Below, piece by piece: positions 55,823 through 55,866 of a DNA stretch of 64,000 bases. Positions within the stretch are counted from its first letter, which is position 1. The number at the start of each line of letters is the position of its first letter. The notes beneath the pieces were generated by a model. That model did not search any database and was not told the origin of the DNA. It worked only from the letters and a program-made list of their open reading frames with translations. The stretch covers positions 64,001-128,000 of the forward strand of contig DXJO01000008.1 in NCBI GenBank assembly GCA_019057475.1, in the 5' to 3' direction. The DNA is from Candidatus Thorarchaeota archaeon. Lineage in GTDB: Archaea > Asgardarchaeota > Thorarchaeia > Thorarchaeales > Thorarchaeaceae. A program made the translations under genes and the position numbers.

Positions 55823-55866
55823 TGCTCTGCCGGTGTTGCATTGCTTTACACGCCGGCTTCACTGCA
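55823..55866 (-). promoter_or_regulatory. Eukaryote/Lokiarchaeota-type SECIS-like element (K-turn core, apical AAA)
   Basis: RNA UGC-AGU-GA-A-GCCGG-CGUGU-AAA-GCAAUGC-AACA-CCGGC-A-GA-GCA: UGC/GCA helix, 3-nt bulge, tandem GA/GA, GCCGG/CCGGC stem, AAA 11 nt after the UGA. Confidence 0.7.

Follow-up and report, generated by a model that had tools for sequence, protein, structure and literature searches.

The window, i.e., the whole stretch of 64,000 nucleotides of Candidatus Thorarchaeota DNA analysed here, carries on its minus strand a candidate selenoprotein gene with a hairpin at its 3' end. In coordinates of the window, the locus comprises the following features:

56709 to 56715, minus strand: TATA-like TTTATAT box, ~50 nt 5' of the ATG, a putative promoter from sequence only
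55859 to 56662, minus strand: candidate selenoprotein coding sequence, 267 aa with codon 25 read as Sec, ATG at 56662
56588 to 56590, minus strand: in-frame TGA (Sec25) in the motif C22-T-S-U25 (CxxU), with the Cys22 codon at 56599-56597
55866 to 55823, minus strand: SECIS hairpin as first marked
55859 to 55866, minus strand: 5' side of the putative kink-turn core, i.e., UGC (helix I), the 3-nt bulge AGU and GA; the UGA at 55861-55859 is also the stop codon
55829 to 55857, minus strand: helix II, GU, AAA (55847-55845) and an optional GC/GC mini-stem
55823 to 55828, minus strand: 3' side of the core, i.e., A, GA (55827-55826) and GCA (helix I)
55809 to 55822, minus strand: accessory hairpin adjoining the 3' end of helix I, with 5 bp and a 4-nt loop here, mostly GGG-N5-CCC in orthologs
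55801 to 55806, minus strand: 3' arm of a lower helix, which can pair with the coding end 55871-55866 and close a three-way junction

With translation table 11 the open reading frame begins at 56548, and the same frame extends 5' through a single TGA to the ATG. In public gene calls the product is cut short, at about 230-240 aa. The 56 close database homologs are without exception (56/56) truncated calls with a coverage of at most 90%, and their annotated starts vary from copy to copy; Candidatus Thorarchaeota is the source of most of the closest named ones. Synonymous variation is seen in codons 1-24 at P12, R13, D15 and G8, and neither a stop nor a frame shift occurs in this segment. Codon 25 is TGA in 40 of the 41 Thorarchaeia orthologs and TGT in one, and never TAA or TAG. 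A profile search recovered full-length homologs that have CxxC at this site, with the second Cys opposite Sec25 in the alignment; the ortholog of genome G009 has no Cys22. Selenoprotein genes are recognised by a conserved TGA with coding conservation on both sides and by a Sec/Cys pair among homologs, and both are found here. A blind, SECIS-first scan of the genome returned 937 loose matches, and a long frame behind an internal TGA was present only in this gene and in selD; loose single-genome descriptors of this kind give hundreds of matches, which prove nothing alone. Judged by its sequence conservation, the gene 56662-55859, which is monocistronic in Thorarchaeia, very probably encodes a selenoprotein.

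Seven nucleotides past the Sec codon lies a conserved GGUCG (codons 28-29, 56576-56581, minus strand), with Gly28 encoded by GGT in 38/41 and Arg29 by CGC in 30/41 orthologs. It shows no conserved local fold, and no conserved local hairpin was found around UGA25.

The minus-strand letters 55866-55823 are exactly those read in a first-pass annotation, which had proposed a eukaryote-like SECIS at this position. Comparison of 40 Thorarchaeia copies bears this identity out, with a covarying helix II and with a UGA/GA core and apical adenines that are conserved across the TGA-form orthologs. Helix II, which had been described as a GC-rich GCCGG stem, is real and covarying but longer than drawn: 55857-55850 pair with 55836-55829 over 8 bp, with one C.A mismatch beyond GCCGG. 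In the 40 orthologs 92.5% of its cells are paired, and two-sided changes occur in all pairs (8/8). The covariation score of the whole structure was 0.515 for these 40 copies, compared to 0.215 for shuffled alignments, a control that ignores relatedness, and to at most 0.156 when the structure was slid along the alignment. On its 5' side the core reads AUGA in 37/40 and GUGA in 3/40 Thorarchaeia orthologs, with GUGA in the window copy; the 3' side reads GA in 35/40, AA in 2/40 and UA in 3/40. The first apical AA lies 9-11 nt past the UGA in 40/40 orthologs; the AAA annotated 11 nt after the UGA is indeed there in the window, and 35/40 orthologs have their first AA at the same position. Adjoining the bulge, one C-G pair is invariant (40/40), while the last residue of the protein is Q, R or P. 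The apical GC/GC mini-helix of 2 bp, which would be the mini-stem of a type II (form II) element, can be drawn in most copies but with 0 compensatory changes, so that form II is only a possible assignment.

Considered alone, the hairpin is modest, with a folding z of -2.4 and, for a strict descriptor, 10 genomic matches versus 0-6 in Markov simulations. Since folding and descriptor alone are only moderately significant, we accept the hairpin as real because it is conserved and covaries. The minimum-energy fold does not contain the kink-turn, as expected for non-canonical pairs, and the core geometry given here is an assumed one. What has been published as characteristic of Asgard eSECIS-like elements is found at the locus, i.e., the core, an upper stem of 7-15 bp with no more than two mismatches, unpaired apical adenines and a position at the 3' end of a gene in a Sec-using genome. 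The GAA/A bulge between two stems that defines the Methanococcus-type SECIS is absent from the consensus. SECIS families were absent among the matches of an Rfam search up to E 10; according to the text of PMC11227280, published Asgard SECIS elements are likewise missed by such tools. A covariance model built on the present family matched its own locus only and missed the selD and vhuU elements, and is therefore gene-specific. Taken together, the hairpin at 55866-55823 is almost certainly an Asgard eukaryote-like SECIS. By the same comparisons it is very likely the SECIS of a monocistronic Thorarchaeia gene whose selenoprotein family is absent from published surveys.

The genome carries tRNA-Sec and SepSecS, together with EFSec-like and PSTK-like ORFs in the same cluster as SepSecS, both recognised from sequence and position. 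Its SelD is of the Sec type (GUSCK), and two vhuU genes encode UxxC, reading DCULSC. Similar hairpins, which the first-pass annotation had suggested looking for at known selenoprotein genes of the genome, were found after selD (G000:C45:24508) and after both vhuU genes (C29:57379 and C29:66716), and each of these genes ends in its own SECIS UGA. The HdrA and VhuD copies of the genome have no Sec-type TGA in the aligned regions and therefore could not be used as SECIS controls. By analogy with eukaryotic and Loki SECIS elements, the core would fold as a kink-turn and would bind an L7Ae-type or ribosomal factor, and the element would help EFSec-Sec-tRNA to decode UGA25 ~730 nt upstream.

A 216-aa hypothetical gene lies directly after secS (L047:11046-11696 = G000:C42:61045-61692), and its homologs adjoin secS in several Asgard families. 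It may be the Sec-associated protein mentioned in the text of PMC11227280. The Sec-associated hypothetical protein MBD3157761.1 of that paper (Huang 2024) was also considered as a candidate for the gene studied here. As far as the text of the paper allows a comparison, the two are probably different: the ortholog with the nearest accession is MBD3159313.1, and it is another gene that adjoins secS in many families.

The SECIS is probably larger than first marked and spans about 55871-55801. Accessory hairpins equivalent to the one at 55809-55822 occur after selD, after both vhuU genes and in Loki-type orthologs. In the selD and the two vhuU elements the accessory hairpin can form together with a long lower helix that involves the coding end. 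The same three-way junction results there and in the majority of Loki-type copies, in which the two arms of the lower helix are mostly non-coding. Within the present gene family 69.5% of the cells of the lower helix are paired, and 4/5 pairs show two-sided changes. It is weaker than helix II, and it is clearer after selD, with compensatory changes there. RNAalifold, run unaided, returned helix II only, both in the Thorarchaeia family and in the Loki set, in which helix II is nearly invariant. The junction is based on per-sequence folds, on pair counts on an imperfect alignment and on the selD alignment. No description of the accessory hairpin, the lower helix or the junction was found in the text consulted of PMC4989117 and PMC11227280.

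Further 3', a GC-rich hairpin with U-rich runs on both strands (window 55743-55762) sits between this gene and the convergent gene 55272-55736, and is a possible two-way terminator.

The predicted model of the 267-aa protein has a pLDDT of 92.7 and consists of a beta-supersandwich plus one helix. Residues 3-5 and 13-22 are modelled as strands within the sandwich, and Sec25 is placed in the loop between strands two and three, the one modelled with the lowest confidence. The best structural match is the N-terminal domain of GH15 glucodextranase (Z 23.5, rmsd 2.4 Å, 227 residues, ~12% identity). GH15 glucodextranase/glucoamylase (PDB 1ulv, 1lf6) and GH94 phosphorylases share the N-terminal beta-supersandwich, a galactose mutarotase-like fold, which matches over the whole length. 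In contrast to these enzymes, the Thorarchaeia protein is stand-alone and carries CxxU, and glycosidase activity is not implied; the fold points to no substrate. The catalytic (alpha/alpha)6 domain of GH15/GH94 is absent, and orthologs end at the same place. Pfam gave no match above cut-off for the window protein and NCBIfam none for 22 family members; a sequence search of the PDB returned nothing significant, and a feature search only unnamed Asgard clusters.

Family f9 copies (Loki-type) without the first Cys all end in Cys, and in Thorarchaeia CxxU is present but a tail Cys is not. This alternation of Cys22 and tail Cys agrees with a redox cycle that uses a resolving cysteine. Sec25, exposed on the loop of a beta-hairpin, would cycle via a selenenylsulfide with a resolving Cys, which would be Cys22 here and the C-terminal Cys in Loki-type copies without Cys22. 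From this sequence pattern, we give an even chance to the protein being a thiol/selenol redox protein.

It is possible, yet clearly less probable, that CxxU/CxxC has no catalytic redox role and instead binds a metal (Zn, Fe or Ni) or serves as a regulatory switch on a sandwich that binds carbohydrate. Metal knuckles commonly take the form of CxxC at a hairpin turn, copies in families f29 and f30 have three Cys/Sec, and the nearest folds are non-catalytic N-terminal domains of glycosidases. Too few ligands are available for a structural site, however, as f9 has Sec plus one distant Cys and Thorarchaeia has CxxU only. In Loki-type genomes the protein might act in this role with an adjacent Roadblock-small GTPase (Ras) fusion, whose gene immediately precedes it in the same orientation in Loki-type Sec and Cys loci (f9, f29; L130-L136, L060; Pfam-confirmed in three loci). 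This neighbour, however, is absent in Thorarchaeia.

The core UGA 55861-55859 terminates the open reading frame, as had been annotated. The description of this overlap as unusual was not upheld: it has already been published, and it holds in all four selenoprotein genes of the genome. For VhuU.1 of Loki the SECIS AUGA doubles as the stop codon, and a minimal-distance argument has been proposed in the text of Mariotti 2016 (PMC4989117); the text of Huang 2024 (PMC11227280) reports the overlap as frequent in Asgard. We found exact overlap in 40 of the 41 Thorarchaeia copies with a readable end, in 30/30 selD genes and in both vhuU genes. The exception, G009, has a 1-nt shift near the end, and its frame runs through helix II to a stop in the apical loop. 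None of the 20 Loki-type orthologs (20/20) shows the overlap, with the core 3-25 nt past the stop, and four of them end in a UGA 3-19 nt before the core. Judging by these four, zero spacing, which had been suggested to keep the terminal UGA from being read as Sec, is not needed for this. Because Loki-type copies do without it, the overlap is required neither by the family nor for protection of a terminal UGA. It is ordinary for these archaea and, being already known, adds little. The UGA of the element would stay a stop because of its position within the element, which could not serve a codon at so short a distance. Most likely, the overlap would persist since the UGA is required by the RNA core and the last helix by the protein. 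In Thorarchaeia the protein does not have the C-terminal tail of ~35-45 aa present in Loki-type homologs, which fits a SECIS that came into frame and became the stop.

A selected regulatory device has also been suggested, in which a terminating ribosome would unfold the core and lower helices, so that the next ribosome at UGA25 would stop without a SECIS and Sec insertion would be tied to ribosome density. Such a coupling would add to the explanation above and not replace it. Its geometry is plausible: the last codons form one side of the lower helix, which a terminating ribosome therefore has to open. The near-complete retention of the overlap in this gene, selD and vhuU agrees with such a device, but is already accounted for by the need for the core UGA. 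The Loki-type copies with their core beyond the stop and the G009 frame passing through helix II speak against it, and ribosome occupancy of a stop codon is probably short relative to ribosome spacing. We regard such a device as improbable.

A profile search of 400 genomes of the phylum gave matches at E 1e-5 in 229, about 20 of which are weak paralog or fragment matches. The strong matches come from ~200 Asgard genomes in six families. SepSecS is present in five of these, and the sixth is represented by one 66%-complete genome. The CxxU motif occurs in Thorarchaeia, f30, f16 and f28. Family f9 has xxxU, with TGA and a classical lokiSECIS in 20/20 copies, and f29 has CxxC in 9/9. Sec-using families without this gene are f7, f13 and f24-f27. 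With respect to neighbours, the gene adjoins secS in f16 and, in Thorarchaeia, a block that is divergent yet conserved; no pathway is indicated.

TGA orthologs in f30 and a related assembly (L122, L123, L125, L059) and in f16 (L126-L128) are followed by conserved hairpins without canonical core or apical adenines, which are possibly divergent SECIS types.

Loss of the hairpin in Cys orthologs had been put forward as a check on the SECIS assignment. It is seen in f29, where 9/9 copies have no element just past the stop, but not in the sole Thorarchaeia copy with TGT (Cys) at codon 25 (L147, G367:C61:11908-12702), where a SECIS-like hairpin is kept. The genome of this copy (89% complete) has a TGA-type selD, while EFSec and SepSecS were not matched, and the copy nests among Sec copies. 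This fits a recent reversion to Cys; the link between Sec and hairpin is slightly weakened. Two further Thorarchaeia genomes retain deleted remnants of the gene in which the SECIS is still recognisable (L150 of G373 and L152 of G010), and a third is without the gene; selD, EFSec and SepSecS were not found in the two remnant-bearing genomes.

Such decay once the Sec system is lost, the confinement to Sec-using families and the position beside secS in f16 could also point to an accessory of selenium handling, e.g., a Se carrier to SelD or SepSecS. However, any selenoprotein decays without a Sec system, several Sec-using families have no such gene, and it is not beside Sec genes in Thorarchaeia or Loki-type genomes. 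A role of this kind is quite unlikely.

The tree, from which half of the Thorarchaeia rows as well as L098, L108, L112, L124, L128 and L129 are left out, shows Sec and Cys forms intermingled; its row L114, although labelled U, is a CxxC protein. On a parsimony reading of this tree, whose root is uncertain, Sec would be ancestral, with at least three reversions to Cys. The Cys form is also present in the single-contig genomes G187 (L130) and G192 (L131).

That UGA25 is instead a true stop after a 24-aa leader, with the body restarting downstream and the 3' hairpin serving as a terminator or stability element, is scarcely credible: databases do call a ~234-aa protein and one Cys copy does retain the hairpin, but the TGA is never swapped for TAA or TAG and is aligned to a Cys of CxxC, the N-terminal strands are part of the predicted fold, the called starts vary between copies, and the selD and vhuU elements are built in the same way as the hairpin.

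Among the Sec-encoding orthologs of f9, three loci carry an insertion just past the Sec UGA, of 29 nt in L144 (G235:C1:1600382-1600430), 32 nt in L145 (G264:C43:89933-89984) and 31 nt in L146 (G273:C161:5699-5749). Each insertion shifts the frame, and each differs internally while keeping a CUUG/CAAG central helix with two 3-nt bulges. Cutting by the tRNA-intron rule restores the frame and the family consensus T-U-N in 3/3. Based on these sequences, the insertions are candidate spliced bulge-helix-bulge mRNA introns, found with one strict pattern in 3 of the 135 f9 genomes. According to a 2020 paper, one other archaeal mRNA intron of this type was known, in cbf5, in addition to a 5' UTR case described in that paper.

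As far as their texts describe them, the Asgard eSECIS-like elements (lokiSECIS, PMC4989117; type I/II models, PMC11227280) resemble the window element in the [A/G]UGA...GA core, the upper stem of 8-9 bp, the position at the gene end and the overlap of UGA and stop. The apical adenines are also alike, with GUAAA as reported for frhA of Thorarchaeia. The window element differs in serving a gene outside the seven Asgard families and in the change of the 3' GA to UA in 3/40 copies. With eukaryotic SECIS elements of form I/II it shares the kink-turn core (assumed here), helix II and apical AA ~11 nt from the core, whereas its helix II is shorter, its helix I has only 3 bp before the junction and there is no distance from the stop. 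Asgard genomes, unlike eukaryotes, are without SBP2, and the Rfam models do not match the window element. The Methanococcus-type element (eaSECIS) has the 3' position and archaeal origin in common, but a GAA/A bulge in place of the AUGA/GA core.

Listed archaeal selenoprotein families (SelD, FrhA, VhuU, VhuD, HdrA, Prx-like, AhpF-N, DsbA-like, FdhA, FwdB and HesB-like) share the CxxU UGA, Cys homologs and a 3' SECIS with the present gene, but are unrelated to it in sequence and fold. The family is absent from the seven Asgard and the eleven archaeal selenoprotein families. It is also not recognisable in a 2026 table of 119 prokaryotic families (PMC13188914). A few listed families have no model, so that the exclusion by Pfam and NCBIfam is incomplete. 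Relative to the searchable literature, the selenoprotein family is new.

The transition between archaeal and eukaryotic Sec decoding is represented by the Asgard archaea, whose selenoproteome has been catalogued by homology to known families, an approach that cannot reveal a new one. The present family adds to it a protein that is mis-called as a truncated hypothetical one and has a fold not found among listed selenoproteins. As a joint proposition, which we put forward tentatively and at somewhat below even odds, the gene would represent an Asgard selenoprotein family that is undescribed and probably ancient, has a beta-supersandwich and not a thioredoxin fold, and occurs about as widely as the five major families already known. 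The proposition further includes a conserved three-way junction below the kink-turn, which could be the binding site of an SBP2 substitute, and, in one Loki-type sub-lineage, Sec insertion that would require a tRNA-type intron, located immediately past the Sec codon, to be spliced out. With covariation in 60 aligned SECIS copies and a junction common to selD and vhuU, concrete mutants can be designed for SBP2-less SECIS recognition by Asgard ribosomes.

A distant copy of the sandwich domain is present at ~600-750 of a 1,470-aa subtilisin-like membrane protein (G000:C42). In this S8-like surface peptidase, which is conserved in Thorarchaeia, only the C-terminal half of the profile is matched.
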